Source: a virus
Lineage: Duplodnaviria > Caudoviricetes
IMG/VR virus record: IMGVR_UViG_3300033475_000038
Span: 1-49,395 of that record
DNA length: 49,395 nucleotides
Strand: one strand, 5' to 3'
This document shows positions 1,250-47,852 of this stretch, one piece after another (the stretch's first letter is position 1; the number at the start of each line of letters is the position of its first letter). The notes under the pieces were generated by a model. The model was not told where the DNA came from, made no database searches, and was given only the letters and a program-made list of their open reading frames with translations. A program made the translations under genes and the position numbers.

Positions 1250-2794
1250 GTGCTCGCGTTCTTCCTGGGGCTCCTGATGGTCGCCTTCGATCCGGCGGCG
1301 GTGCGCGTCCTCTGGGCTCCATTCCCAGGGATGCAGACCGAGTTCGTCAACGCCGCCGAGTTCGAGGTGTTCGGCGGCGGAGCCAAGGGGCCGGGCAAGT
1401 CCGACTGTCTCGTCGCGCAGGCGGTGCGCCAGGTGCATCGGCCGCGCTACAACGGCTACCTCATCCGCGAGACCGGCCCGCAGCTCGACGAGCTGAAGCA
1501 GCGCACGCACCGGCTGTACCCGCTCATGCCCGAGAAGCCCGCGTGGAACGGCGACGGTCACGGGCGCTGGACGTTCCCGAGCGGCGCTCGCGTGATGTTC
1601 GAGTCGATCGCGACCCCCGAGGACGTGGCGAAGATCCAGGGCAAGGAGCCGACGTTCATCGGCCACGACGAGGCGGGCAACGTCAAGGACGAGAAAACGA
1701 TCGACTTGGAGCAGGCCGAGCTGCGCTCGCCCGACCCCGAGCTGGTCGTGATGTGGCGCGGCACCGGCAACCCTGGGAAGGCCGGGCACGCCTGGGTGAA
1801 GCGCCGCTTCATCACGCCGTGCGGCGAGGACGGCCGCCGGATCGTGCTCCGCAAGGTGAAGCTGCCGAACGGGTTGGTCGGCGTGCTCAGCCGCCGGTTC
1901 ATCCCCGGCACGGTGCTCGACAACCCGATCTACGCGAACGATCCGCTGTACATGGCGCAGCTATTCACGCTGCCCGAGCTGCTGCGCCGTCAGCTCCTCT
2001 ACGGCGACTGGAACGCGGGTGTCGGCACCGCGCTCGACGAGCTGAACGCCGCCGTCCACATGGTGCGGCCGTTCCGCGTGCCCGAGGGCTGGCCGCGCTT
2101 CGGCTCGTTCGATTGGGGCTACGCGCACTGGTGGGTGCTCTGCCACTTCGCCGCCGCCGAGGACGGGCAGCTCTACGTCGTCGATACCGTGCGCGGCCGT
2201 CGTCACAAGCCGTATCAGATCGCCGAGCGGATCAAGTCGCGTGTGCCCGAGCTGCAACAGCTCCAGTACATCGACACCGACACCTACGCGATGCAGGAGC
2301 GGCGCGATCGGAACGACAACACGCCGAGCATCCAGGAGGAGCTGATGACCGAGCATCAGATCTTCCTGCGCCTCGGCAACCTCGATCGGAAGAAGGGGCT
2401 CAACAACCTGCGCCACTATCTCGCCTGGCGCGGCATCGGCCCCGAGGGACGCGACGCGCTGCCCGCGCTCCGGTTCTTCGACACGCCCGGCAACCGCTGG
2501 CTGTTCGAGCAGTGCGAGGCGATGGTCACCGACGAGAGCGATCCCGAGGACGTGCTCAAGGTGAACGCCGACCCGGAGACGGGCGTCGGCGGCGACGACG
2601 GCTACGACGCGCTGCGCGTGGGCGTCGCCTCCCGGCCGCCGCGCGCGATCGGCTCGTACTACGCAGGCGACGTGCGCGCCTTCTCGAAGCAGACGCTCAA
2701 CTTCATGGTCGAGACGCTGTACCGCGACCGGCCGGGCCTGACCTCGCACATGGGGCAGGGCAGCAACCTTTCCACTTTTCTCACAGGAGTGTGA
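1250..2794 (+). CDS. terL: Terminase large subunit
   Basis: Walker A GGAKGPGKS, Walker B FIGHDEAG, coupling motif GTGNPG, RNase-H-like nuclease FDWG ... DDGYDALR. The start is uncertain (GTG 1250 or ATG 1277). Confidence 0.95.
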   Translation: MLAFFLGLLMVAFDPAAVRVLWAPFPGMQTEFVNAAEFEVFGGGAKGPGKSDCLVAQAVRQVHRPRYNGYLIRETGPQLDELKQRTHRLYPLMPEKPAWNGDGHGRWTFPSGARVMFESIATPEDVAKIQGKEPTFIGHDEAGNVKDEKTIDLEQAELRSPDPELVVMWRGTGNPGKAGHAWVKRRFITPCGEDGRRIVLRKVKLPNGLVGVLSRRFIPGTVLDNPIYANDPLYMAQLFTLPELLRRQLLYGDWNAGVGTALDELNAAVHMVRPFRVPEGWPRFGSFDWGYAHWWVLCHFAAAEDGQLYVVDTVRGRRHKPYQIAERIKSRVPELQQLQYIDTDTYAMQERRDRNDNTPSIQEELMTEHQIFLRLGNLDRKKGLNNLRHYLAWRGIGPEGRDALPALRFFDTPGNRWLFEQCEAMVTDESDPEDVLKVNADPETGVGGDDGYDALRVGVASRPPRAIGSYYAGDVRAFSKQTLNFMVETLYRDRPGLTSHMGQGSNLSTFLTGV

Positions 2795-2796
2795 GT

Positions 2797-3360
2797 ATGA
2801 CCGATCGAGAGATCGACGAGATCGTCGCCGCGCGCGCTGGGGTCGGCGTGCAGCGCATCACGCAGGAGGACGGCCCGCGCATCGCCGCCGAGGGCCGTCG
2901 AGCGGTGAAGCGCGCGAACCCCGTGTTCCTCGTCGAGCTGAAGGACGACGCCGTCGTCGAGACCGTGGACGGCACGCTCAACGGCGAGGCGGGCGGCTTC
3001 ATCGCGCACGACCCGATCTCCGGGCATGTGTGGCCGGTGAAGCGTAGCTACGTCGAGCAGCACTACGACTTCAAGCAGCCGGGCGATCCACCGAGCACCG
3101 TCACGAGCGACACGGCTCGCGAGCTGTACAAGGACGTGAACGCGATCCGACGCGCGCTGAAGGACATCGGCCGCGATCTCGACCAGATGCGCCGCGACCC
3201 GATGCTGCGCCAAGCGACGCTGTTCGACCAGGACGTGGGCGCGAACATCACGATCGCGTTCAGAGATCTCGAAAGCGCGTCGATGCGGCTGGGCAAGGCG
3301 CTCCAGGCAATCGACGGCGGTGTCAGCGTCTACGACAAGGAGACCACGGTCGGCGCATGA
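2797..3360 (+). CDS. Two-domain protein: PGDYG-like beta domain plus Acb2/Tad1-like helical hairpin (putative anti-defence sponge)
   Basis: AGGAG RBS at 2785. N-terminal VETVDGTLNGEAGGFIAHDPISGHVWPV..YVEQHY; C-terminal ANITIAFRDLESASMRLGKALQAIDGGVSVYDK. Confidence 0.55.
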   Translation: MTDREIDEIVAARAGVGVQRITQEDGPRIAAEGRRAVKRANPVFLVELKDDAVVETVDGTLNGEAGGFIAHDPISGHVWPVKRSYVEQHYDFKQPGDPPSTVTSDTARELYKDVNAIRRALKDIGRDLDQMRRDPMLRQATLFDQDVGANITIAFRDLESASMRLGKALQAIDGGVSVYDKETTVGA

Positions 3361-23030: not shown

Positions 23031-26000
23031 ATGCCGACGCCGCCGCTCCAGCTTGAGGACATCTTCGCCGAACAGGGGCCGGGCAAGAAGAAGCCCGCCG
23101 CCCCCGAATCGGACGCATTTGACCTAGAAAGCGTTTTCTCGCCGCCGCCCTCGCAACTCGACACTGCGATGAAGGCGACGCCGCCTGCCCCGACGCCCGC
23201 GCCACGGCGCGGCATCTTCAGCGCGATCCACGACTTCCTCGGCTACCACGAGGCCCCGCAGAAGCCGGTCGAGGGTCCAGCGCCCACGCCCGAGCAGGAA
23301 GCGGCGGGGGCGCGCGCCGCCGGGAACAAGCTGATCGCGGGGGCCGCCGCGCCATCCGCGACGGCGACGCCGACGCAGACGTACGTGAAGAACCGCACGG
23401 GCGCGGTCGTGCCGCTCAACGAGCAGCAGCAGCACGACGAACGGCTGCGCCAGCAGATGGTCTCGACCGAGCAAGCGAACGCGACGCCCGAGCACTGGCG
23501 CGAGATCGCGAAGCGCGGCATGGAGCTGGGCTCGCAGCTCCACGCCGAGGGGAAGCACGAGGAAGCGAACGAGGTGCTGCGGAAGGCGTACAACGCCCAG
23601 CTCCTCGCGCAGTCCACCGAGAAGTCGGACACGTTCGGCAACATCGTGAGGAGTTCCGCATTAGGGATCGTGAAAGATCCCTTCGCGGCCGAGAAGCGGA
23701 ACATCGACGAGATCTCCCAGCAGGGGATGACGTTCTCGCCCGAGGAGCAGCAGCGGCTCCTCGGCGTGCGCGGCGCGACGACGCAGCGCGGCTTCGACAT
23801 CACGAAGGACATCGCGGCCCCGGCGGTCGGCCAGCTCCCGCTGCTCGCGGCGGGCGGTGCGGTCGGCCGGACGGCGACGGCGATCCTCGGCGCTGGGCTC
23901 GAACGCGCTGGCGCGGAGACGATCGGCCAGGGACTCGGCCGCCTGGCGCGCGGGATCGAGGTGCCGGAGGTCGCGGGGCCGCGCATCCCCACGTCGCTCG
24001 CGACGGAGGGCGGCCGGGTCTCGACGCTCGGCGCGCGCATCAGCGAGGAGGTGCAGGCGCTCCGCACGCAGCTCCCGTCGATCGTCGGCCGGGGCGCGAC
24101 CGAGGGGCAGATCGTCGGCGGCGTCGCGACCTATCGAGAAGCGCGCCAGCGCGGCGCGACACCCGAGCAGGCCCTCGCCGCCGTCGCCGAAGGGATCGTG
24201 CCGAATGCGGCGCTCGGCGTCACCGCCGAGACCGGGCTCGGGCTCGCCGGTCGCGCAGCGGGGCTCGGCTACGATCCGATCCGTCGCGCGTTCGTGCCGA
24301 TCGCTGACAAGATCCGGGGCGCGGCGGCCGACGTGCGCGACCGCTTCGGCGGCATCGTCACGCCGACCGACGAGCGCGAGCAGGTGCAGCTCGGGCCGGA
24401 ACCGCCGTCGCTCGAAGCGAAGCGCGGCGAGCTGGCGGGCAACATGGACCAGCTCCTCGCCGGTCGCCGCCAGGAAACGCAGCGGTCGATGGAGGACGTA
24501 TTCGCCGGGCAGGACACGCGCCCGGCCGGGCCGGAGTTCTGGGAGAACATTCCGCCCGAGCAGATCCCCCGCGAGACGGCGGGCGAGCGCATCGTCGGCC
24601 CGCGCGAGAACGTCGTCGAGCCGCCGCAGGGTCCGCTCCAGCGCGCGCCCGAGGGCACGCTCCGCACGGCGCAGCAGATCGCGATGGGCGAGCCGGTGCT
24701 CCAGCCGCACGAGGAGGCGAACGCTTTCCATCAGATGGTGCGCGCGCAGGAGACGGCGCGCGCGGAGACGGCGGCGCGCGAGTCAGCGGCGAACGAGATG
24801 CTGAATCACCCGGACTTCCGGCTGGAGCGCGCGGCGCAAGAGCGGCCGGGCGAGCAGCAGGGTCCGCTGACGTTGGCCCAGACGCTCGAAGGCGCGGCGC
24901 GCGGCGCGGAGCAGGGCGAACCGTTGGCGCAGGAGTACCACCAGGCGATCAACGACTACGCCGACGCTGCCGCCGCGATTCGCGACGCGGGCGAGAACGG
25001 TCCCTCGACGAAGGCGCAGGTCGCGCTGGCTCGCGCGCGCCAGGCGCTCGACGCCGCACGCACCCGCTACGGCAAGCAGTTCGGCGCGTCGGCCGTACTG
25101 GCGCTCGCGGCAAGCAACTCGGATCTCACGGATGAGGAGAAGAAGATGGTCGGCCTCGGTGGGCTCGCCATCCTCTCGACTGACATCGTCAAGCACGGCG
25201 AGATCCCGCCCGAGCGCGGGTTCGTGTCGCGGCTCCGCCAGGCGATCGAGGACCGCACCGTGTTCCCGAAGAAGTGGGACGAGGCCCGGCCCGCCGCCGA
25301 CTGGATCGGCAAGCTGTCCGGCTCGAACGCCTTCTCGAAGAAGGAGCTGGAGCTGCTGCGCCCGCGCTTGGAGGAGGCCCAGCAGCAGAAGGTGAAGCTC
25401 ACGCGCGCGAGCGTCGCCAAGATGGCCGAGGACGTTGCGCCGCAGATCGAGCGCATCACGCTCGGCTCGGGCGCGGGTCATCGCGTTGGCGAAGTCGCCG
25501 ATCTCGAAGGCGACGCCAACGACATTCACGACATCGACGAGTTCTCGGAGGAGGAGCAACGCGACCCCGGCTACATCCAGCAGCAGATCGCCAATCGGCA
25601 GACGCAAGTCACAGCCCACGAGGAGGACATCGAACGACAGCAGAGTGAAGCGCAGGAGGCGATGGACGACGCCGAGCGCACGCAGCGGCGTCGGCTCAAC
25701 GAGCTGCACGAGACCCTGGACAAATACGGGCTCTCGCACCGGGTCGCCGACGATGCGATCGACTACATCCACGAGCACGTCGAGGACGAGTACGTGCCGC
25801 GCGATACGATCGACAAGGCGATGGCGAAGATTCAGGACGATCTCTACGACGCTCGGCCGGACGATGAGAATGTTCTGAAGGAGAGCGGCTATAAGGTCAA
25901 GCAGGAGGAGCGCGAGGTGTACAAGGCGACGTACACCATCGACGGCGTCGAGCACGAGGAGGAGTTCACGCTCGAACCGAACGAGACCGAGGCCGACCTC

Positions 26001-29000
26001 CGGAAGCACATCGAGACCGAGAATCCGAGCGCCCAGGAGATTCAGCTCGAACAGACCGATGTGCAGGACGAATGGGTCGTCTACGATTCCGGCGGCGACG
26101 AGCGCGCGCGCGGCGACGATGAGCAGGAGGTCATGCGCGAGGCGGTCGAGCGCGATCGGCTCGGCGAGGACAGCCTAGAGGAGTTGTTCAACGACGTGCG
26201 CCGCGACCTCGACGACTACGCCGACGCCACGGCCGAATGGCGACGCGCGGAGAGTGAGCACTACTACCGCACCGAGGGCGACGCCTTCGACGAGGAGCAC
26301 AGTCAGATCAACACGCTCCAGGAGGAGATCTCGCGGCTGGAGGACATGCACGACGACGCGGTCGATTACCAGGCCGAGCAGGCCCGGCTCAACGATCAGA
26401 CCGAGCAGCGCCGTGCGCTCGAAGCGGCCGGACAGACGACGATGTTCCCCGAGGAGACGGGTCGCCCGCCGGGCGAACCAGTCGCCGTCGTCGAAGCGCC
26501 GCCCGAGGAGCAGCCCGAGCGCAACATCATCCCGCAGGTTCACGGGTCGCCGCAGTATGCGTCGTATCAGCGCATCGGCGGCGGCACGAACTATCGAGAG
26601 ATGTTGAATGTGTGGAGTAATAAGCCCGACGATCCGTACACGCAGGGGCATTACTCCGACTACTCGAACGTCGTCGGTCACGTCCGCGCCGAAGATCACA
26701 CGATCCAGGACACGCCCGATGTCTCCGGCTCGAAGATCGAGTTCCGCGAGGGCGAGCCCGAGGTGATCCGCACGACGAAGGCGCACGTCATCGAGAAGCG
26801 AAAGGATCGCGAGAAGCTGCTGGCGCAGATGGCCGACATCGCGCAGCAGTACGCGCAGCTCTCGGGCGACGAGGCGACGGGCGAGCGCGCGCACGAAATG
26901 GCGCGCAAGTACGAGCGGCTGAACCAGCAGGCGAACGACCTCTCGAATCGCGAGGACGAGCTGCTGGCGAAGCTGCGAAACCTCCAGGGCTCGCTACTGC
27001 ATCAAGACTCGCCGCCGCCGAAGAAGGTCGCGGTCATGATCGAGTCGCAGTCCGATTGGGCGCAGCAGGCGGGGAAGTACGGCGTGAAGGGACCGCCGCC
27101 AACGCCCGAACAGAAGGGCGCACTGCGCGTCGAGCTGGGTCGCCGTCAGCAAGAATGGCAGCAGGCGACGAGCGCGTTCAATCGCGCGCAGGACACGCAC
27201 GACGTGTCGGTGCGCGAGTTCATCGGCCTGATGAACAGCGAGCAGGGCACCGGCCCCGAAGGCTGGCGCGCGCAGTACCACGAGGCGGTGCGCGAGAAGA
27301 ATGCGGAGCACACGCTCGGGCGGCCCGACGAGACCGGGCGGCCGTACGATCACGCGATCCCCGGCACGGGCGACATTCTCAACCCGTACTACTCGCGCGA
27401 GTGGGCGCTGCTCGGCTCGATCGCGCCGGAGGTCCGCGAAGGGATCGACAAGCTGCGCGCCACGCGCCAGGCGCTCGACGATGCCAGTCTCGCCGACAGT
27501 CGTGCGCGCGAGCGACTGAGTGACGCCCAGGATGCCGTGCGCGAGATCGACAACGAGGGCGGCGGGCGCAACAAAGTCCCGGCGTCGCCGTACATCACGG
27601 GCGGCACCGAGAAGAACCCGGTCACTGGCCGCTACGACGCCGAGGGCGCGCAGGCGGTTCACCTCAACGCCGCGCGCTTCCTGATGGATGCGGCCGAGCG
27701 CGGCTACTCCGACATCGCCTGGAGTGACGCGGCGAACCGGGTGAAGAACGCCGGGCTCGGGATGGACGCGGCGCGCGTGAACTACGACGAGCAGACGCCG
27801 AGCGCGATGAAGAAGCTGCTCGGTGCGCTCGGGTTCAAGGACGTGCCGATGGACAAGATCTACATCAAGGGCAACGGCCACTGGCACATGGAGCTGACGC
27901 CCGAGATGCGGAAGGCGATCCGTCGCGCGGGGCTGCCGCTGCTCGGCGTGATGGCGATCGCGGGCTCGCCCGACGAGGCACAGGCGCAGGACGGCAAGGG
28001 CGGCTCCGGCGACGTTTACAAAACGCTCACGGGCGGGATCGCGGCCGGGGCGGCGCTCATGTACCTCGCGCAGCACCGGAAGGTGCGCCGGATCGTGAAG
28101 GAGAACCGGGCGCTGGAGCGCGCGCTCGACATGGACGAGCTGTCGGGGCTCGCGAACAAGCGCGCCTTCGCTCGCGCGCGCGACGGCGTCGATGCCGACG
28201 ACAAATACTCGTGGGCGGTGTTCGACGGCGATCGGTTCAAGAAGATGAACGATGTGCATGGACACGCCGAGGGCGACAAGGCGATCCAGCACTTCGGCCG
28301 CACGGTGATGACCACGGCGAAAGACATGGACATCCCGATGCGCGGCTTCCGGAACGGCGGCGACGAGATCGCGTTCGCCGTGCCGAAGGAGCACGCGGCC
28401 GAGTTCATCGAGCGCGTGGAGAAGGCGTCGAAGTACACGAAGGGCGACGTGACGACGCAGCTCACGGGCGGGCTGGGCGACACGTTCGAGAGCGCCGACG
28501 CGCAGCTCCTCGCGAACAAGCGCGCGAAGAAGGCGGCCGATGCGTCGCTGCTCCGCGAGGGCGAGACGGTGCCCGAGCTGCCGAGCGGCGCGAAGGTGCC
28601 CGCCCCGCCGAAGAAGATGACCGACACGGGCGGCGCGATCCTCTACTCGAACCCGGTCGGCCCGGCGCTCAAGGAGCTGGCGCGCTACCCGCAGGCGGCG
28701 GCGCTCGCCGGGGCCGCGACGCTGCTTGCGGATTCTGACAACAAAGATCTCAAACAGACCGCGATGCCGATCTACGCGCTCGCGGCCCTGTCGGCGATCG
28801 GCTCGCGGCGCATCGGCGCGGGGAAGGACTTCCTCGCGGACAAGCTGCTCCAGCAGCTCCGGAAGTCGAGCGAGGGCACGGCGGTCGCGCGGTTCTTTAA
28901 TCCCGACGCGCTGCTCCATCCCGAGGTGCGCGACGCGATTCTCCGGTACGAGAACGATCGGAGCCGCGCCGCCGCGCGCGGCCAGGAGTTCGCGAGCCAG

Positions 29001-31328
29001 GCGCGGAAGCTGGGCGGCGCGGGTGACCGGGCGGTCTCCGACGTGCTCGAAGGCGAGCAGTGGGAGGACACGTCGAACATGAGCGCGAAGGATCTCACGG
29101 CCGTGCTCACGTTCGCGTCGGCGCTCGACGCCGAGTACCAGGGCGCGGCGAAGGAACTGCTCGACACGAAGGCGCGCTCGCCGGAGGAGCTGCTGGCGGG
29201 CTACGCTGGCCCGCGCCGGTATGCGTACCACGAGGCCCAGGCCGCCCAGGCGGAGGGGAAGGCTCCGGGCGGGAAGGGCGGCGCGACGCGGATCTCGCAG
29301 CTCAAGACGCGCACGCTCGACGAGCCGATCCGCGCCGCCGAGGCCGCGCTCGCCGAAGCGAAGCAGGGCAACGACGCGAAGGCGATCCAGGACGCGCAGG
29401 ACAAACTCGACGAGGCACACGCCGTACAGCAGTCGCGCCGGGTCGAGCTGGGCGAGATTCGAGAATCCTCATATCGCGCCGCTCAAGGGATCGAGCGCGC
29501 ATACTCCGACGCCGCCGCCGCGCGTCTGTTCGGCGCGCTCAAGGATGTCCCTGGGGTCGTGCATCCCGAGTGGAAGTCGGCCGCCGACGATCTCCAGACG
29601 GCGAAGCAGATGCTCGCCGCCGCCAAGACGCCCGCCGATCGCGACGCGGCGAAGCAGCTCCGCGACGCCGCCATCGTGAAGATCAACGATCTCCGGCGGC
29701 AGTTCGATCGCGAGGGCGGTGACTTCGTGTCGCTCCCCGACTCGCGCTCGATGGGCCTCCTGCGCGGGGCCGTCGTGCAGCGCGACGTTGCCAACTCGAT
29801 CAACGGCGTCGCGAAGAAGGGCACGTACGCCAAGCTGCTCCGCGCCTGGAAGGAAGTGAAAACGGTGTTCAACCCCGGCACGCATCAGGGGAATATCCTC
29901 TCGAACATCGTGTTCTCGCACATGGAAGGGCTGCCGATGTGGGAACAGCCCGCCTACCTGAAGAAAGCAGCGGCCGATCTCCGGAGCTACGGCCCGGCGG
30001 CGCGCGCGCTTTCCGAGGCGGGCATCATGGACGTGAACGCCGTCAACGCAGAGAGCGAGGGCGTCGCCGCGCGCGAGATGCACACGCGCGAGGGCCTTGA
30101 GGGTTTACTCAAGACGACGCGGCCGGAGACGAAGTCCGTGCTCGAACAGCAGGGCATCACCGAAGCGGCGATGCGCGCGCGCGGCCGGAAGGCGGTCGCC
30201 AAGGGCGCGGCCGTGGGCGCGGCGCTCGGCGCGGCGAAGCTGGCCGACGACGAGAACCCCGAGGACTCCGCGCTCGGCGGTGCAGCGGGCGCGCTCGCGG
30301 GCGGGCTCATCGCGCGTCGCGGGCTCAAGAAGTCGATTCGAGGACTCTACTCGAACGAGGACAACATCTTCCGCGCCGCGATCTGGCTGAAGAAGGTGAA
30401 GGGCGGCATGACGCCGGAGCAGGCGACGGCGTACACGCGCGAGGCGCTGGGCAACTTCCGATCGCGCTCGCCCGCGCTGGCGATGGCGCGCTCGACCGTC
30501 GCGCCGTTCGTCCTCTATCCGGCGAAGGTGCTGCCCCGCTTCGCGAAGCAGGTCGTCGATCACCCCTGGCGCTATGCGTCGCTGATCGCGCTCTGGGGCG
30601 GGCTGAACGAGCTGTCGAAGCGCCAGGTCGGCGCGACGCAGGACTCGGATCTCCCGCCCGGCCAGCGCCGCGCGCTGGGCTACGCGCTGCCCGGCTTCAC
30701 GCAGCTCCCGTTCTCCAACGCGCGCGGCGAGAAGGCGGGCGTGGATGTCTCACGCTGGACGCCGGTCTCGGCCGCGACGACGGCAGCACCGCCGGGCTCG
30801 CTCCCGGCCAGCTTCGACGAACGCATCCCCGACGTGTTCAGAGCGGGCGGCCCGGTGGTGGATCTCGCGGCGCGCTTCGGCGCGAACGTGGACCCGTACA
30901 CCGGCAACCCCGCGTACGCTCGCGACTATCCGCCGCGCCAGAACATCGCGCACCTCCTGCGCGACGTGGCGGGTGTCGGACTCCCCAGCGCGCTCGACTT
31001 CCATGCCGAGCGCATCAAGGAGGATGTCCAAAACCGCGACACCGACAAGCTGAAGAACGATCTGCTTGGCCCGACCGGATTGCGGCCGAGGTTCATCCGC
31101 CCAGGCGCGAACCTCATGCAGAGCCGCAACATCCTGGAAAACTCCCTACGTGAAATGAAGCAAGATTTCCGACGCGCCATGATGGCGAACCAGAACGAGG
31201 CGCGTGTTCCCGTGTTGCGCGACCGTTACCTGCGCCAAGTGCAGCAGGCGCTCGATAACTTCCGACGCCGTGCGGGGATGGAGCCGCCCGCCGATCTCGT
31301 CCATGACGCTCTCTCCGGCGAACAATGA
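23031..31328 (+). CDS. Giant ejection/polyvalent protein (2765 aa) containing an acidic tract, an ESQSDW-type domain and a GGDEF domain
   Basis: Last structural gene before lysis; C-terminal KTVFNPGTHQGN, EDNIFR, VAPFV and NVDPYTG motifs of large injected proteins; GGDEI at 28356-28370. Confidence 0.8.
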   Translation: MPTPPLQLEDIFAEQGPGKKKPAAPESDAFDLESVFSPPPSQLDTAMKATPPAPTPAPRRGIFSAIHDFLGYHEAPQKPVEGPAPTPEQEAAGARAAGNKLIAGAAAPSATATPTQTYVKNRTGAVVPLNEQQQHDERLRQQMVSTEQANATPEHWREIAKRGMELGSQLHAEGKHEEANEVLRKAYNAQLLAQSTEKSDTFGNIVRSSALGIVKDPFAAEKRNIDEISQQGMTFSPEEQQRLLGVRGATTQRGFDITKDIAAPAVGQLPLLAAGGAVGRTATAILGAGLERAGAETIGQGLGRLARGIEVPEVAGPRIPTSLATEGGRVSTLGARISEEVQALRTQLPSIVGRGATEGQIVGGVATYREARQRGATPEQALAAVAEGIVPNAALGVTAETGLGLAGRAAGLGYDPIRRAFVPIADKIRGAAADVRDRFGGIVTPTDEREQVQLGPEPPSLEAKRGELAGNMDQLLAGRRQETQRSMEDVFAGQDTRPAGPEFWENIPPEQIPRETAGERIVGPRENVVEPPQGPLQRAPEGTLRTAQQIAMGEPVLQPHEEANAFHQMVRAQETARAETAARESAANEMLNHPDFRLERAAQERPGEQQGPLTLAQTLEGAARGAEQGEPLAQEYHQAINDYADAAAAIRDAGENGPSTKAQVALARARQALDAARTRYGKQFGASAVLALAASNSDLTDEEKKMVGLGGLAILSTDIVKHGEIPPERGFVSRLRQAIEDRTVFPKKWDEARPAADWIGKLSGSNAFSKKELELLRPRLEEAQQQKVKLTRASVAKMAEDVAPQIERITLGSGAGHRVGEVADLEGDANDIHDIDEFSEEEQRDPGYIQQQIANRQTQVTAHEEDIERQQSEAQEAMDDAERTQRRRLNELHETLDKYGLSHRVADDAIDYIHEHVEDEYVPRDTIDKAMAKIQDDLYDARPDDENVLKESGYKVKQEEREVYKATYTIDGVEHEEEFTLEPNETEADLRKHIETENPSAQEIQLEQTDVQDEWVVYDSGGDERARGDDEQEVMREAVERDRLGEDSLEELFNDVRRDLDDYADATAEWRRAESEHYYRTEGDAFDEEHSQINTLQEEISRLEDMHDDAVDYQAEQARLNDQTEQRRALEAAGQTTMFPEETGRPPGEPVAVVEAPPEEQPERNIIPQVHGSPQYASYQRIGGGTNYREMLNVWSNKPDDPYTQGHYSDYSNVVGHVRAEDHTIQDTPDVSGSKIEFREGEPEVIRTTKAHVIEKRKDREKLLAQMADIAQQYAQLSGDEATGERAHEMARKYERLNQQANDLSNREDELLAKLRNLQGSLLHQDSPPPKKVAVMIESQSDWAQQAGKYGVKGPPPTPEQKGALRVELGRRQQEWQQATSAFNRAQDTHDVSVREFIGLMNSEQGTGPEGWRAQYHEAVREKNAEHTLGRPDETGRPYDHAIPGTGDILNPYYSREWALLGSIAPEVREGIDKLRATRQALDDASLADSRARERLSDAQDAVREIDNEGGGRNKVPASPYITGGTEKNPVTGRYDAEGAQAVHLNAARFLMDAAERGYSDIAWSDAANRVKNAGLGMDAARVNYDEQTPSAMKKLLGALGFKDVPMDKIYIKGNGHWHMELTPEMRKAIRRAGLPLLGVMAIAGSPDEAQAQDGKGGSGDVYKTLTGGIAAGAALMYLAQHRKVRRIVKENRALERALDMDELSGLANKRAFARARDGVDADDKYSWAVFDGDRFKKMNDVHGHAEGDKAIQHFGRTVMTTAKDMDIPMRGFRNGGDEIAFAVPKEHAAEFIERVEKASKYTKGDVTTQLTGGLGDTFESADAQLLANKRAKKAADASLLREGETVPELPSGAKVPAPPKKMTDTGGAILYSNPVGPALKELARYPQAAALAGAATLLADSDNKDLKQTAMPIYALAALSAIGSRRIGAGKDFLADKLLQQLRKSSEGTAVARFFNPDALLHPEVRDAILRYENDRSRAAARGQEFASQARKLGGAGDRAVSDVLEGEQWEDTSNMSAKDLTAVLTFASALDAEYQGAAKELLDTKARSPEELLAGYAGPRRYAYHEAQAAQAEGKAPGGKGGATRISQLKTRTLDEPIRAAEAALAEAKQGNDAKAIQDAQDKLDEAHAVQQSRRVELGEIRESSYRAAQGIERAYSDAAAARLFGALKDVPGVVHPEWKSAADDLQTAKQMLAAAKTPADRDAAKQLRDAAIVKINDLRRQFDREGGDFVSLPDSRSMGLLRGAVVQRDVANSINGVAKKGTYAKLLRAWKEVKTVFNPGTHQGNILSNIVFSHMEGLPMWEQPAYLKKAAADLRSYGPAARALSEAGIMDVNAVNAESEGVAAREMHTREGLEGLLKTTRPETKSVLEQQGITEAAMRARGRKAVAKGAAVGAALGAAKLADDENPEDSALGGAAGALAGGLIARRGLKKSIRGLYSNEDNIFRAAIWLKKVKGGMTPEQATAYTREALGNFRSRSPALAMARSTVAPFVLYPAKVLPRFAKQVVDHPWRYASLIALWGGLNELSKRQVGATQDSDLPPGQRRALGYALPGFTQLPFSNARGEKAGVDVSRWTPVSAATTAAPPGSLPASFDERIPDVFRAGGPVVDLAARFGANVDPYTGNPAYARDYPPRQNIAHLLRDVAGVGLPSALDFHAERIKEDVQNRDTDKLKNDLLGPTGLRPRFIRPGANLMQSRNILENSLREMKQDFRRAMMANQNEARVPVLRDRYLRQVQQALDNFRRRAGMEPPADLVHDALSGEQ
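28134..28532 (+). other. GGDEF (diguanylate cyclase) domain within the giant protein
   Basis: DELSGLANKRAF ... VFDGDRFKKMNDVHGHAEGD ... FRNGGDEI ... ADAQLLANK, against canonical DPLTGL.NRR.F / D.D.FK..ND.YGH..GD / R.GGDEF / AD.ALY.AK. Confidence 0.9.
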
Positions 31329-41796: not shown

Positions 41797-42182
41797 TGCT
41801 GGACGGCCATGAGCCGCACTACCGCTGCCAGCACAGCGACTTCTACGACGGGAAGCATCACAAGACGCGCGTCTGGTCGGTCTCGTGCTCGTGCGGCTTC
41901 CGGCACGACGGCGCGGGCTCGAAGGTCACGCGCCGGAACATCTGGCTGGAGCACGTCGCCGTCACGATGGCGCGCGAGCTGAAGCAGCTCCGCGAGTTCA
42001 GGGCGCTCGCGATGGGGGAAAGACAAACCCCCCGGCCCGAAGGCCGAGGGGCTGCGTCTCCCTCAAACGAGGCACCACCACGAGCTGGTACGGTAGCACC
42101 ATCCAGCTCGATCACGCAAGCACGAGCGGGCGGAGCGCCGGAGCCAGCACGACCTCGCCAGTCGGCTCGACCGTTGCGATGA
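41796..42182 (+). CDS. Cys/His-rich hypothetical protein (possible Zn finger)
   Basis: TGATG coupling; H...CSCG...WLEH. The 3' end overlaps the convergent terminator and gene. Confidence 0.45.
   Translation: MLDGHEPHYRCQHSDFYDGKHHKTRVWSVSCSCGFRHDGAGSKVTRRNIWLEHVAVTMARELKQLREFRALAMGERQTPRPEGRGAASPSNEAPPRAGTVAPSSSITQARAGGAPEPARPRQSARPLR
42019..42051 (-). terminator. Intrinsic terminator of the leftward early operon
   Basis: Minus strand reads CCCCUCGGCC-UUCG-GGCCGGGGGG-UUUGUCUUU. Confidence 0.8.
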
Positions 42183-43123: not shown

Positions 43124-43146
43124 GTGAGAGGATGTGAGAAAGGGGA

Positions 43147-43227
43147 GAGTCGGGCGGGGAACGTCGCTACCGTGGACGCCGTTCCCACGCGCCGAAGTGC
43201 GCGCCGGTTGGAGGCCGCGCCCGACCC
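43147..43227 (-). ncRNA. Structured intergenic RNA element (four-way junction)
   Basis: A 10-bp closing stem GGGUCGGGCG/CGCCCGACUC encloses three hairpins. Confidence 0.35.
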
Positions 43228-43229
43228 GA

Positions 43230-43523
43230 TCATCCGACCTTGCGCTTGATGTGGCCGATCTGGATCGCGATCGGCGAGAGCAGCGCGCGATCTCGAATCA
43301 GCCGTTCGAGCGAGAAGCCGCGCAGCTTCCCCGTGGTGATGAGCGACCACTGGCTCGGCGCTTCGCCCGTGTGATACGCCGCCTCGGTCTGGGTCATGCC
43401 CGCCTCGGCGATGATCTTCGTGATGTCCTTCGCGACCTCGACCTTCATCGCATGGACGTGCGCTTCGACGCGCTCGCGGCGTTTGACGTGGGCCTTCAGA
43501 TCCTTCTTCGCGTTCGCTGCCAT
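43230..43523 (-). CDS. XRE-family HTH protein (HigA2/HTH_37-like)
   Basis: GAGGAG RBS; GMTQTEAA...G...SQWS....GKLRGFSLERLI. Confidence 0.85.
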   Translation of the reverse strand: MAANAKKDLKAHVKRRERVEAHVHAMKVEVAKDITKIIAEAGMTQTEAAYHTGEAPSQWSLITTGKLRGFSLERLIRDRALLSPIAIQIGHIKRKVG

Positions 43524-43551
43524 GATCTCCTCGTGGTGGTGGTGAGTGCGC

Positions 43552-43672
43552 GCCCGGACTTGGGACCGGGCCGTGCATTACGAGCTGGGGGCACCCCTCG
43601 CGGGGCAGTGGTCCGGCCACTCGCTGGCTTGCCGCCAGGCGGCTCGCGCCGCTCCCCCAGCTCTCCCTCTGC
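43552..43672 (-). ncRNA. Twister-like self-cleaving ribozyme, permuted (P5-type), copy 1, with a 62-nt multi-hairpin insert in P1
   Basis: GCA-GAGGG-A-[P1 GAGCUGGGGG/CCCCCAGCUC]-G-UAA-UGC-ACG-GCCCGG-UCCCAAGU-CCGGGC; predicted cut U43580^A43579. Confidence 0.8.
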
Positions 43673-43673
43673 G

Positions 43674-44024
43674 CTAGTCCTGTTGGGCGGGCCGGGCGGT
43701 GACGCGGATGTCGTTGCCCTCGACGACCCCGTGCTCGATGCCGCGCTCGCTGATGATCGTCGCCTCGTGCGCCATTGCGCCGCGCGTCTCGATCGGCGGC
43801 TCCTTGCCGTAGATCTCGTCGGCGGCCTCGGTCACGTCGGCGCAGCTCATGGCGATCGACGCCGCGCCCCACTTCCCGCGCTTCCCGGCCTCGCGGATCG
43901 CCTTGCATGTTCGCGTGATGTACTCGTCACGCGACAGCTTCGCGCGCTTCGCCTTGCGCGCTCGCTTGATCTCCTGGGCGAGCGGGCTCTGGTCCCGGAT
44001 CTCGCCGTACAGCTTGGTTTTCAT
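43674..44024 (-). CDS. Basic hypothetical protein (116 aa)
   Basis: GGAG RBS; K/R-rich N-terminal half (KRARKAKRAK); the stop codon abuts ribozyme 1. Confidence 0.7.
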   Translation of the reverse strand: MKTKLYGEIRDQSPLAQEIKRARKAKRAKLSRDEYITRTCKAIREAGKRGKWGAASIAMSCADVTEAADEIYGKEPPIETRGAMAHEATIISERGIEHGVVEGNDIRVTARPAQQD

Positions 44025-44083
44025 CGTGGACTCCGTCGTGGTGGTGAGGCGGCCCGCTGCGTCGCGAACCGCCAGGGCGTCGG

Positions 44084-44218
44084 CTAGAGCGACGCCCAGA
44101 ACAGGTAGCCGAGGAACGTGATGACCCCCGCCATGATGACGTTGTCCGCTGAGTTATCCGTCACCGGCGTCGGCGTCACGCATTGCGTGGTGCAAGAGCT
44201 GTAACCGTAGGCCCACAT
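44084..44218 (-). CDS. Small membrane peptide (44 aa)
   Basis: Absent from the ORF track. Strong SD GAGGAGGUG; MWAYGYSSCTTQCVTPTPVTDNSADNVIMAGVITFLGYLFWASL. Confidence 0.6.
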   Translation of the reverse strand: MWAYGYSSCTTQCVTPTPVTDNSADNVIMAGVITFLGYLFWASL

Positions 44219-44250
44219 CTGAAATCACCTCCTCATGAGGAAACGTGAAT

Positions 44251-44309
44251 GCCAGGACTTGGGACCTGGCCGTGCATTAAGCCGAGCAGCGTCGCCCGGC
44301 CCCCTCTGC
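44251..44309 (-). ncRNA. Twister-like self-cleaving ribozyme, permuted (P5-type), copy 2
   Basis: GCA-GAGGG-[P1 GGCCGGGC/GCUCGGCU]-UAA-UGC-ACG-GCCAGG-UCCCAAGU-CCUGGC; predicted cut U44279^A44278. Confidence 0.8.
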
Positions 44310-45181
44310 TAGACGCCCGCGAGCGCGGTCTGCGCCGGGTCCGTGTCCTCCTCCATCGACTTGCCCAGCTTCGCGAGGAGCGTCGCCTCGGCCGTGTCGA
44401 TCGCCTCGGTCAGCTTCGCGGCCTGCGCGCCGACGAGCGTCGCGTAGGCACCGACGCGCTCGCGCAGCTCGGCGACGCGGGTGAGGCGGCGGGACTTCAC
44501 GTCCGAGCGGATGCCCTTCTCGTTCAGCTCGTCGATCGCTTCCTTCAGCTCGCCGATCTGCTTGAGCATGTAGTCGGTGATCGTGTTCGCGATCGACTCG
44601 TCCGAGCCGTGGCCGATCGTGCAGGCGAAGCGCGAGAGCGAGCCGCCGATCTCGTCGAGGATCGAGGCCATCTGGCCGATGACGCCCTGGCCGCTCGGGA
44701 TGAAGTACGCGCCGCCCTGGTCGCGCACCGGGATAAGATCGGAGCCTGCGCCGCTGACGACGCGCTGGAGGATGCGCGTCACGTCGCTCGCGGTGCGCGT
44801 CTCGATCACGAGCTGGTCGGCGTCGGCGACCGCCTGGCGCAGCGCCGGGTCGTCCGTGGTGAGGCGGTTGGCGATGTCGTCGAAGTCGATCGCCGCCTCG
44901 CGCGTGTACGTCAGCGAGCCCGAGGCCGCGTGATCCTCGCGCGTGATCTGGCGCGTGGTGTGAGCGACCGGGCGAGCCAGCTTCTTCACGTCCTTCGCGC
45001 TGGTCGTCTTGGCGATGTAGCTCGCCGAGCGCGCGACGCGAGAGGCCGGGCGGAGATCCGGCGCGAGATCCGGGTCGAGCCCGGCGGCGATGATGCCGTT
45101 GCGGAGATCGTTCAGCTTGACCGTGGCCGGAACCGACCAGGAGACGATGAAGCCGACAGGTGCGTTGATGTTGCTGGTCAT
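44309..45181 (-). CDS. DUF6744/DUF3150-like protein associated with AAA-VWA modules
   Basis: GAGG RBS; VGFIVSWSV, IPVRDQGGAYFIP and a C-terminal coiled coil. Confidence 0.6.
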   Translation of the reverse strand: MTSNINAPVGFIVSWSVPATVKLNDLRNGIIAAGLDPDLAPDLRPASRVARSASYIAKTTSAKDVKKLARPVAHTTRQITREDHAASGSLTYTREAAIDFDDIANRLTTDDPALRQAVADADQLVIETRTASDVTRILQRVVSGAGSDLIPVRDQGGAYFIPSGQGVIGQMASILDEIGGSLSRFACTIGHGSDESIANTITDYMLKQIGELKEAIDELNEKGIRSDVKSRRLTRVAELRERVGAYATLVGAQAAKLTEAIDTAEATLLAKLGKSMEEDTDPAQTALAGV

Positions 45182-45192
45182 GGGAGGGGTCC

Positions 45193-46578
45193 TCAGTTCG
45201 TGGTGGTCGTGGGGCCGATCGACAGCACGACATCGACGGCCGGGTTGTTGAGATCCAGCTCGGGGAGACACCAGACGCCGCCGTTGCAGAAGCGGGCGAG
45301 CGTGGTGGTCTTACGGACTCCGACGCCGATGCCGAACGTGCGGAGATTCATGCGCTTCGAGAACGCCTGGTACTCGGCCAGCAGCTCCTCGGTGATGCCG
45401 ACATCGTCGTCGGTGATGATGATGTGATCGGACTGCGCGCCGATCTTGCCCTCGGGCCAGGCTTCGGTGGGCAGCGTGTGCAGCGGGCCGACGAGCGAGG
45501 TGCCGCCGCAGAAGAACGACTCCAGCCACTCGACGATCACCTCGGGCGAGCCGGACGCGCACCGGATCTCGGGCGTGCCCGACCAGGCGCAGAGGAGGAA
45601 CGGCCGCTTCTGCGCGCGAGCGATCGACGCCATCGCCAGGGCGAGCCCCTTCGCCGCCTCGATCCGCTCGCCGCCCATGCTCGCCGACTCATCGACCGAG
45701 ACGACGATCGGTCCCATCTGGACCGGCGTCCGCAACGTGCGCCGGTAAGACAGCGCCCGGCGCTGGGCGAGCCTCGCCAGGGCAAGAACTTCGAGTTCTG
45801 GTACTGCACCAGCCACCAGGCTCGACTCGACCGGCAGAAGGCGTCCTAGATCGCCGGACAGCTCGATGCCGGTGATCTCCATGCCGGGGAGATCGAGCCG
45901 CTGCCGCTGAAGCCGCTGGGCCTTGGCGATGAAGCGGCCCGCCATCTTCATGATCCCGGCGAGGTTGGTCGAGCCCCGCAGGCGGCGCGTGTACTGCGCG
46001 AGCTGCTTCGCTTCGAGCGAGCTGCCGGAGCCGAGCCCGAGCCCCGCGCCGACCGCCTCGGCTTCTTCGGCCGCCTGGTTCGCTTGGCTCAGCGCCTCGC
46101 GCGTCGAACGGATACGCGCGACCGACTGCTCGGGTGACTCCTCCTCGCCGTCCTCGGCCTGGTTGTCGCCCTCCTCGACGGCGTACGCGATCCACTGCTT
46201 CGCCAGCTCGGCGGCAGCGATCTCGGCTACGGCCGCCGACGCCACGGTGCGCGAACGGAGCGCCGCGCACTCGGGCGACTGCATGAGCTGCGACCACCAG
46301 CGGGCGCGCGTGGCGTCCTTCGGCCGCTCGGCCAGCGTCGGCTTCGAGCTGAGCAGGGTCTCGATCGCGTCGGCCGCGACCGGCGCGTCGTCCTTCGTCA
46401 CGCCCTCGACGCCCAGCTCGCTCCACTGCTCGGCGAGCCGGGTGCCCGTGCGCTTCGTCCAGCGATCGGTGCGGAGAACCGTCTCCGACTCCTCGGCAAA
46501 CTCGCTGGTGTGGGACGCGACGGCACCAGCAGCCGCCGCGCCTTCCCCGAGGAGCTGCGTGAGTTCTTCGCTGCTCAT
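45193..46578 (-). CDS. VWA-domain protein (ViaA/CoxE-like)
   Basis: GIELSGDLGRLLP.E; MIDAS motif VSVDESASM ... GGTS ... IITDD. Confidence 0.88.
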   Translation of the reverse strand: MSSEELTQLLGEGAAAAGAVASHTSEFAEESETVLRTDRWTKRTGTRLAEQWSELGVEGVTKDDAPVAADAIETLLSSKPTLAERPKDATRARWWSQLMQSPECAALRSRTVASAAVAEIAAAELAKQWIAYAVEEGDNQAEDGEEESPEQSVARIRSTREALSQANQAAEEAEAVGAGLGLGSGSSLEAKQLAQYTRRLRGSTNLAGIMKMAGRFIAKAQRLQRQRLDLPGMEITGIELSGDLGRLLPVESSLVAGAVPELEVLALARLAQRRALSYRRTLRTPVQMGPIVVSVDESASMGGERIEAAKGLALAMASIARAQKRPFLLCAWSGTPEIRCASGSPEVIVEWLESFFCGGTSLVGPLHTLPTEAWPEGKIGAQSDHIIITDDDVGITEELLAEYQAFSKRMNLRTFGIGVGVRKTTTLARFCNGGVWCLPELDLNNPAVDVVLSIGPTTTTN

Positions 46579-47678
46579 GCGGACAGCATCGCCTCGATCT
46601 TGGCTTCCGAGAGGCCCATGATGCGGCCCTGGAGGCGAACGTGGGCGGAGTTGACGTACTTCACGACCTTCGCCGCGCGCCCGTTGGCACCGGGCTGGCT
46701 GGCGAGCTGCTTCGACTCCTTGACCAGCGTCTCGATCTTCGTGACGGCGTCGAGCCGAGCCGCCGCGTCCGTCGCCGCACGCATCAGCTCGTCAGTCTCG
46801 GCGAGGATCGAGTCGAGCCGGGCACCGAGCGGGTTCGCGATGGCGACGATCTTCTGCGCCGCCGGAGCCGCCTGCTCGGGCGTGGTCCAGAGGACCCACT
46901 GGAGGCATTCGAGATCGGCCGACTCGACCGTCGTGCCGCCGCGCAGCAGCGCCGCCGCCCGCGCGATCTTCTCGGAGGTGCGGAGCCGACGATCGCTGAC
47001 GGCGATGCCCGCCTCGTCCAGCTCGTTGAGGATCTGGTCGAGCGTGTCGAGCGCGGCCGGGCTCCAGGCGATCTTCTTCGCCTCGTCAGCGGCGTGGTTG
47101 ATGTCCTGGAGCGTGACGACCGGCATGATGACCGGCGGCGAGAACGCGAGGAGCTGACGACGGAAGCCGGAGCCGAGGTACTGCACCGACGCCCGCAGCG
47201 CCCAGCGGTCGAGCATGGCCGCGTCCTCGGGCCAGGTGTTCGCCGAGCCGATGCAGCTCACGAGCGGCATCTTGAGCTGCGACGTGCCGATGAGCGCCTG
47301 ACGCTCGGGACCGAGCGCGTGCAGCAGCGAGTCGAGGATGGCGGGCGAGGCCCGCCCGACTTCGTCGAGGTAGGCGATGTGCGCCTCGGCGAGATAGCCG
47401 CCCGTGACGTGCTCGTAGCGATCCTGTCGGAGCGCGGAGATCGAGACCGGCCCCCAGATCGCCTCGGGGGCCGTGGTCGGCGACAGCAGGCGCTCGAAGT
47501 AGCGCGAGCCGTCGATAAGGGACGCCGCAGCGCGACAGAGCTGCGACTTGCCGGTGCCCGGCGGGCCGACGAGCAGCGCGTGCTCGCGAGCGACCAGCGC
47601 CAGGGTGATGATCGAAGCCTCGCGCTCGCGCCCGAGGAGTTGCGCGGCAATCCCGTCGCGCAGGGTCGTGATGGTCAT
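46575..47678 (-). CDS. MoxR/RavA-family AAA+ ATPase
   Basis: REHALLVGPPGTGKS, YLDEV, ILDSLL, SAN, AMLDRW, VSDRR. Confidence 0.92.
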   Translation of the reverse strand: MTITTLRDGIAAQLLGREREASIITLALVAREHALLVGPPGTGKSQLCRAAASLIDGSRYFERLLSPTTAPEAIWGPVSISALRQDRYEHVTGGYLAEAHIAYLDEVGRASPAILDSLLHALGPERQALIGTSQLKMPLVSCIGSANTWPEDAAMLDRWALRASVQYLGSGFRRQLLAFSPPVIMPVVTLQDINHAADEAKKIAWSPAALDTLDQILNELDEAGIAVSDRRLRTSEKIARAAALLRGGTTVESADLECLQWVLWTTPEQAAPAAQKIVAIANPLGARLDSILAETDELMRAATDAAARLDAVTKIETLVKESKQLASQPGANGRAAKVVKYVNSAHVRLQGRIMGLSEAKIEAMLSA

Positions 47679-47769: not shown

Positions 47770-47852
47770 GTCCAGTGGACACATACGAGGACGGTCCTGT
47801 GGACTGTCCGGTGGACGGTCCACTAGACAGTCCGGTGGACAGTCCGGTGGAC
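47770..47852. repeat. Second GTCCnnnGGAC 12-bp-period array (six good units plus one degenerate unit)
   Basis: Units start at 47770, (47782), 47794, 47806, 47818, 47830 and 47842. GTCCGGTGGAC is the reverse complement of GTCCACCGGAC in the rep-gene array. Confidence 0.9.

Follow-up and report, generated by a model that had tools for sequence, protein, structure and literature searches.

Two minus-strand ribozymes, Rz1 and Rz2, lie in the window (the whole phage contig analysed here, 49.4 kb long with a 127-nt terminal repeat) and, judged by sequence, both belong to the type-P5 twister class. It is likely that each folds during transcription and cuts, so that one transcript would become three linear messages; this operon segmentation, which a sequence-only reading of the same DNA had mentioned as its simpler alternative, fits the evidence from placement and recurrence best. 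The ribozymes appear to be real and their arrangement of a known kind, and the circular mRNA that the same reading had proposed is unsupported. The role of self-cleaving ribozymes in phage genomes is called an open question in PMC6765202, and the window locus alone does not settle it; the grammar found in about 120 elements, together with arrays that reach 15 members, suggests that phages process polycistronic mRNA independently of nucleases, and the set of stop codon, ribozyme, and RBS gives easy reporter constructs.

Two twisters in a leftward gene block

The sequence-only reading had described two minus-strand elements with a shared core, and both are where it placed them: the window contains exactly two copies of the 23-nt core, and two core matches were found in none of 100 window shuffles, even with 3 mismatches permitted. 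Each element had been said to start at the UAG of its upstream gene, which is true of Rz1, whose GCA overlaps the G of UAG, but not strictly of Rz2, whose GCA begins one base past it. Rz1 (44251..44309, minus strand) comprises the 5′ strand of P2 with GAGGG (44309-44302), P1 (44301-44294/44287-44280), UAA (44279-44277) with a predicted cut at 44279^44278, and P4 (44270-44265/44256-44251) with its loop L4 (44264-44257). Rz2 (43552..43672, minus strand) comprises P2 with GAGGG (43672-43665), a long P1 made of an A.G mismatch followed by 10 bp (43663-43654/43591-43582), a predicted cut at 43580^43579, and P4 (43571-43566/43557-43552).

The type-P5 class reportedly goes back to Roth et al. 2014. 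The twister identity proposed for both elements is borne out by Rfam for Rz1, by our model R1 for both, and by core and fold. Specifically, i) Rz1 matches Rfam Twister-P5 (RF02684, clan CL00120) at 44253-44310 with 51 bits against a cut-off of 37.6, but the same search, which had been named as a check, gives Rz2 only 22.1 bits (E 0.32), below the gathering cut-off, because the P1 of Rz2 bears a 62-nt four-hairpin junction; ii) R1, which consists of 20 elements from other contigs (nine with a long P1) and none from the window, scores Rz1 at 63.5 bits and Rz2 at 43.3 bits (E 8.5e-10), the next-best match in the window reaching 14.6 bits; iii) folds and coordinates put stems P1, P2, and P4 in P5 order in both elements, and the conserved L1 and L4 bases and the U^A scissile site are present in both; and iv) the P4 stems differ by a compensatory C-G to A-U change, the P1 stems are unrelated in sequence and both pair in the folds, and CCC/GGG (the 3-bp L4-L1 pseudoknot) and AC/GU (the 2-bp L2-L4 pseudoknot) are complementary in both, all as previously described. 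The R1 alignment itself pairs in 99.1% of 336 cells and shows two-sided changes at 11 of 17 pairs, both pseudoknots included, its core conservation being partly built in since its elements were picked by motif. Searches with Rfam, the pattern, and R1 found no third ribozyme in the window.

Compared with the type-P5 twister described for RF02684 and in PMC5408937, Rz1 and Rz2 have P1, P2, P4, both pseudoknots, U^A, and termini between P4 and P2 in common; they differ in the 2-bp pseudoknot, which is GC/GC there and AC/GU here (as in 75 of the 121 phage elements introduced below), and Rz2 differs further by the 62-nt five-way junction in P1. An assembly artefact is argued against by short DNA contigs from other public runs that match pieces of both elements: X2 (44149-44299, 0 differences), X3 (43437-43587, 0 differences), and X4 (43568-43715, 4 differences). 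Among 50,697 records of cultured phages, Rz1 found no meaningful match.

Twisters cut at U^A beside P1, and P1 is dispensable to catalysis (PMC5408937). The cut sites previously predicted from the U^A, and the 699-nt spacing between them, are right; the excised RNA (43580..44278, minus strand) would carry a 5′-OH, the 3′ half of Rz1, two genes, the 5′ half of Rz2, and a 2′,3′-cyclic phosphate. No such piece would arise if Rz2 were inactive or slow and only one cut were made, a reading to which its score below the Rfam cut-off, the A.G mismatch beside its cut site, and its large insert lend some colour. We think it extremely improbable, since every core base of Rz2 equals that of Rz1, A.G stands at the same position at the base of P1 in 15 of the 121 elements, and the precursor MFE structure retains P1 and P2, P1 being dispensable in any case (PMC5408937).

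The contig, for which CheckV estimates a completeness of only 55%, encodes a terminase, a P22-like portal, a major head protein, and RecE/Erf recombination genes, and the ribozyme pair sits in the one block of genes that runs leftward (47678 to about 42100), in the order MoxR AAA+, vWA-like, DUF6744-like, 44 aa, 116 aa, HTH, 180 aa, HTH, and 96 aa. From gene order and content we infer that the block is one early transcript; a sigma-70 scan found no promoter. At the head of this putative operon are the MoxR-type AAA+ ATPase and vWA-like genes (45193..47678, minus strand; bpMoxR E 4e-38, VWA_2 weak at E 0.004), followed by the gene upstream of Rz1 (44309..45181, minus strand; 290 aa, frame open to 45271), whose UAG overlaps the ribozyme and whose DUF6744-like product has an ESM Atlas structure match to PF20529 (TM 0.82) and no direct match in a Pfam search. 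Between the ribozymes are two ORFs on the minus strand. The first (44084..44218; codon model score 19), with the SD GGAGGUG at 44232-44226, encodes an acidic 44-aa product (pI 4.05) with a hydrophobic C-terminal segment (hydropathy peak 1.68), possibly a small membrane protein, for which Pfam and PHROG searches returned no family. The second (43674..44024; codon score 42) encodes a 116-aa protein of pI 9.2 without known family: Pfam and PHROG gave no match and the Atlas no usable one, a search of viral contigs found no relatives of the gene, and the single other homologue found is P0002, with 67% identity. Past Rz2 by 20 nt comes the SD GAGGAG (43532-43527, minus strand) of a 97-aa HTH gene (43230..43523, minus strand; Pfam HTH_37 E 4.8e-8, phrog_2339), and the presumed end of the operon is a terminator-like hairpin (42026..42053, minus strand), which is backed by its position and not by count, since 2 such sites were found and shuffles average 2.0.

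A recurrent placement between stop codon and RBS

When viral contigs were scanned twice for the motif, 3 and 60 loci came out, and a whole-record Rfam search covered 48 records, 45 picked by motif and 3 by protein homology, a comparison set that is not a census. Twister-P5 was present in 45/45 of the former and 0/3 of the latter, and it accounted for all 124 of the 124 Rfam matches in 15 array regions. A pair of elements is nothing special: among the motif-picked records 17/45 have one copy, 7/45 two, and 21/45 three to fifteen (these being matches rather than exact copy numbers, with a few records near-duplicates). A structure-aware pattern recovered 142 elements, and the removal of five duplicate loci (21 elements) left 121 in 42 loci, Rz1 and Rz2 included.

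An SD and start codon follow within 60 nt in 113 of the 121 elements (median 25 nt; 14.8% at random positions), and an upstream ORF stops within 6 nt of P2 in 94 of the 121 (4.6% at random), the stop overlapping P2 in 44. The stop is TAG in 47/77 genes preceding a ribozyme compared with 85/388 other genes, in phages that are related and thus not independent. Across 13 arrays, the median length of the 92 segments is 618 nt; 53 of them contain one gene and 24 contain two. We conclude that a fixed stop-ribozyme-RBS grammar exists in about 120 phage elements and that the window pair is the short end of this common grammar, in which singletons, as well as arrays reaching 15, are no rarer than pairs. 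Our literature searches turned up nothing on phage operons with arrays of twister-P5 or on the spacing of stop, ribozyme, and RBS, though Roth 2014 and Weinberg 2015 may show arrays.

A look for paired ribozymes in relatives had been named as a check. The closest that we found, G046 and G047, whose upstream protein is 70-72% identical to that of the window and near-identical between the two (the records being only 32% and 49% complete), have no twister in the slot and other genes there, so the operon works without them. The flanked genes are thus variable, and the near-identical units of ribozyme and RBS might serve mainly at the DNA level, as recombination points for swaps of accessory genes, with cutting secondary. 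In keeping with such a role, Rz1 and Rz2 form a 56-nt repeat of 73% identity, and two 99.5% identical phages differ at one ribozyme (L070 near 3453, L076 near 2049) which shares its 5′ half and takes its 3′ half from another array member, an apparent gene conversion between ribozymes. We nevertheless consider a DNA-level main role highly improbable, because the catalytic bases hardly vary whereas the stems change in a compensatory way, a pattern that indicates selection for the RNA fold and makes the copies less alike as DNA, and because single copies are common.

Several variations on the theme were seen in passing. In L060 a twister-sister (2615-2685, minus strand) lies about 320 nt downstream of a Twister-P5, making a mixed-class pair. 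The arrays of L072, L073, L077, and L081 have core variants, with C, G, or A preceding the cut in 7/107 elements, and their 3-bp pseudoknot is also found as GUG/CAC. Some bacterial genome bins (L099, L154-L156, L115, and L147) contain repeated matches to the core as well, as many as six within 2 kb, and these are probably prophages or binned phage contigs.

Linear messages or circles

Motif identity, placement, and recurrence across phages are all of a kind with operon segmentation. Both window twisters occupy intergenic gaps, directly past a stop codon and about 20 nt ahead of the next RBS, and their cuts would yield three gene-block mRNAs of about 3.4 kb or more, 699 nt, and about 1.5 kb. 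With the P5 permutation, the upstream piece at each cut would end in the stop codon, the P1 hairpin, and a cyclic phosphate, and the downstream piece would begin with a 5′-OH and the P4 hairpin just before the RBS. The likely purpose would be that each block gets ends of its own, and with them separate rates of decay and of initiation, without recourse to host or phage nucleases. This presumes co-transcription of the block, cleavage in the cell, and an effect on stability whose direction would be set by the host RNases, with the hairpin-bearing ends perhaps playing protective roles. RNase E prefers a 5′ monophosphate. In E. coli, mRNA is stabilised by 5′ hairpins (PMC4033574), whereas in B. 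subtilis RNase J1 degrades the glmS product bearing a 5′-OH (PMC11780869), so the sign of any stability effect is expected to depend on the host.

Two further candidates for shared features were rejected: a CACCAC-rich leader before the RBSs gave 4 matches and 4 in the reversed control, and a rule that cleavage drives SD accessibility met opposite shifts at the two sites (0.32 to 0.13 and 0.30 to 0.57).

RiboJ-type insulators use self-cleavage upstream of a hairpin and RBS to produce a standard 5′ end. Those are engineered, whereas the window pair is natural, of the twister class, and inside an operon, and its upstream piece would also gain a 3′ hairpin. A natural precedent is the set of phage hammerheads of Perreault 2011 (PMC3088659), in which several ribozymes likewise flank single genes or short variable blocks; the window pair matches that layout in having co-oriented ribozymes in intergenic gaps and variable flanked genes, and differs in being twister rather than hammerhead. 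The clustered prophage hammerheads cleave in vitro within 2-kb polycistronic transcripts, and one set does so in E. coli (PMC3088659). Processing to gene-length mRNAs was proposed there (PMC3088659), and the working idea stated in PMC6765202 is that polycistronic RNA is processed to pieces differing in stability. The fixed spacing of stop, ribozyme, and RBS and the arrays reaching 15 that we measured for twisters are undescribed for the hammerheads in the available text of PMC3088659.

The sequence-only reading had instead had RtcB close the 699-nt piece into a circular mRNA. That host RtcB, or the twister itself, ligates this piece to a circle which accumulates or cycles between open and closed seems to us decidedly unlikely. 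In its fullest form the idea is a cut-and-close cycle in which docking of the halves would keep the ends in place for sealing by host RtcB and the rebuilt twister would then open the ring again, giving exonuclease-proof translatable circles in a bacterium, with the four-hairpin domain of Rz2 as the site for a circle-locking factor; we hold this to be just as doubtful, and if true such circles would be a natural bacterial counterpart of engineered circular mRNA. The predicted ends are of the RtcB type (PMC8782182), and hosts often encode RtcB (10 of 14 control genomes do), although the 5′ end of the twister 3′ fragment is described as buried (PMC8782182), and RtcB is absent from the window phage (G000) and from 48 of the 49 records searched. 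The exception is the array-bearing phage G025, which encodes RtcB about 2.2 kb upstream of its first twister-like match, but among helicase, primase-like, and UDG-like genes. This gene (L087 10626-11978, minus strand) lies upstream of a five-member twister array, and G025 is the best natural place to seek circles.

Complementarity between the two ribozyme halves would keep the ends of the piece together in the circle, where the hybrid P2 has a probability of 0.82, but in the linear 699-nt piece that probability is only 0.16-0.19. A first test of end pairing gave p 0.017, without a composition control and with 18 sites missed; with shuffled composition controls and 107 of 113 sites, pairing of a segment with its own end (z -0.17) resembled cross pairing (z -0.14, p 0.39). 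For the window z was -0.27, and 43% of operon 40-mers pair equally well with the 5′ flank. An end-to-end ligation stem was found neither at the window pair nor in 92 comparable segments. The engineered Tornado system has two different twister permutations, almost no ribozyme left on the product, and a designed ligation stem. The window pair resembles Tornado in putting a twister 5′-OH and a 2′,3′-cyclic phosphate on one RNA, as predicted here, and differs in that both its ribozymes are P5, their halves remain on the product, and a ligation stem is absent.

The earlier claim that the junction of a circle rebuilds a full ribozyme does hold in the predicted circular fold, where P1 (0.98-1.0), P4 (0.95), and P2 (0.82) re-form, but the rebuilt twister would be unblocked, and the circle is therefore predicted to cleave again; P1 and P4 are likewise kept in the circular folds of 35/55 other segments. 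Retrozymes, in which tandem ribozymes of the same type do yield circles, offer an instructive comparison (PMC4918200), and circles from tandem ribozymes of the same type are also proposed for totiviruses (PMC13725137). Like the window pair, retrozymes have two such ribozymes about 700 nt apart and would give a circle with one complete ribozyme, but i) their circles survive because alternative pairing blocks the hammerhead (PMC4918200), whereas the modelled window circle leaves its twister unblocked; ii) they are non-coding and about 70% paired (PMC4918200), whereas the 699-nt piece has two ORFs and as a predicted circle is 63% paired (z -1.35 against 30 shuffles; longest helix 10 bp), without a rod fold; and iii) they have 300-400-bp LTRs with TSD, PBS, and PPT (PMC4918200), whereas the window pair forms only the short repeat noted above. 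Zeta-like circles have a length that is a multiple of three and an endless ORF; 699 is divisible by three, yet the three sense frames of the circle contain 5, 4, and 3 stops. The lengths of the 92 segments modulo three (32/32/28) show no bias, and an endless frame occurs in 2 of the 92, namely a 297-nt segment of L080 and a 717-nt segment of L071. Four of the five spacings in G009 are divisible by three; both this and the two endless frames we treat as chance across 13 arrays.

Single copies bear on the same question, since without a partner they can excise nothing: of seven singleton loci checked, six lack a second Rfam ribozyme in the surrounding stretch and one has a twister-sister, with the proviso that long-P1 partners or new classes could be missed by such a search. 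Perreault 2011 looked for circular or spliced products of hammerhead clusters and detected none, the data not being shown there (PMC3088659). Six public runs, all of DNA contigs, showed no join of 43580 to 44278, a result that speaks neither for nor against a junction in RNA. Our literature search found no paper on phage circular mRNA or on the ligation equilibrium of twisters. Operon segmentation thus remains the reading that we prefer, with one feature, the 62-nt junction of Rz2, for whose purpose simple cutting does not account.

The four-hairpin junction in Rz2 P1

The P1 of Rz2 is topped by a 62-nt five-way junction (43592..43653, minus strand) of four 5-bp hairpins (43652-43639, 43638-43624, 43621-43607, and 43606-43593), two with GNRA loops, which had escaped the sequence-only reading. 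MFE and centroid structures agree (z -3.69), and none of 200 shuffles was as stable. Inserts of more than 60 nt in P1 are present in 4 of the 121 elements, Rz2 included, and patterns for long P1 stems retrieved 1 viral and 11 metagenome loci. One of these, L189, is identical to the window, and L117 and L118, being 100% identical to it, are not independent either. The four-hairpin fold was found in none of the other long-P1 twisters that we folded, first at 3 and then at 11 loci, 2 of the 11 being without a proper P1, and no tRNA or tRNA-like gene was found in the window, the junction included. We conclude that the four-hairpin domain is a feature particular to the window locus, with no relative found among long-P1 loci; since the other long inserts share neither sequence nor fold with it, the junction is without covariation evidence. 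As Rz2 shows, twisters with large P1 inserts are missed by Rfam, so that counts are underestimates. In L186 and L193 a long-P1 twister has another GCAGAGGG a few bases after it, possibly an arrangement of back-to-back ribozymes.

The stability of the junction and the rarity of such inserts, together with stops that abut ribozymes far above chance and the strong shift to TAG, could reflect regulated cleavage. In this reading, folding would be held back while P2 and GAGGG are covered by a ribosome terminating at the adjacent stop, and a protein or ligand would bind to the 62-nt junction in the P1 of Rz2, so that cleavage would serve as a readout of translation or of a signal. A TAG overlapping P2 closes an ORF of at least 30 codons in 45/51 cases, against a background of 21.7%. 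Genome compaction accounts equally well for the abutting stops, however, the other long inserts resemble this one in neither sequence nor fold, and P1 is dispensable to the ribozyme (PMC5408937), which makes control through P1 a weak proposition; we judge regulated cleavage unlikely.

Other structures and genes in the window deserve mention. A 10-bp hairpin (44048-44073, minus strand; z -1.28) separates the 44-aa and 116-aa genes within the predicted excised piece. For the gap after the HTH gene (43124-43229, minus strand), the predicted fold has three hairpins enclosed by one long stem (z -1.66); the gap had no Rfam match at E <= 5 and could have a role in processing or stabilisation. About five tandem 12-nt repeats lie at 47790-47852, in a gap upstream of the leftward block; their core on the minus strand is GTCCACCGGAC, with inverted symmetry, and they are a possible operator or origin array. 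On the plus strand, 2797-3360 weakly resembles (E 6.6e-5, below cut-off) the Acb2/Tad1 hairpin domain known from anti-defence sponge proteins, and 23031-31328, past the structural genes, encodes a 2765-aa protein with an internal GGDEF-like domain (E 5.5e-11).
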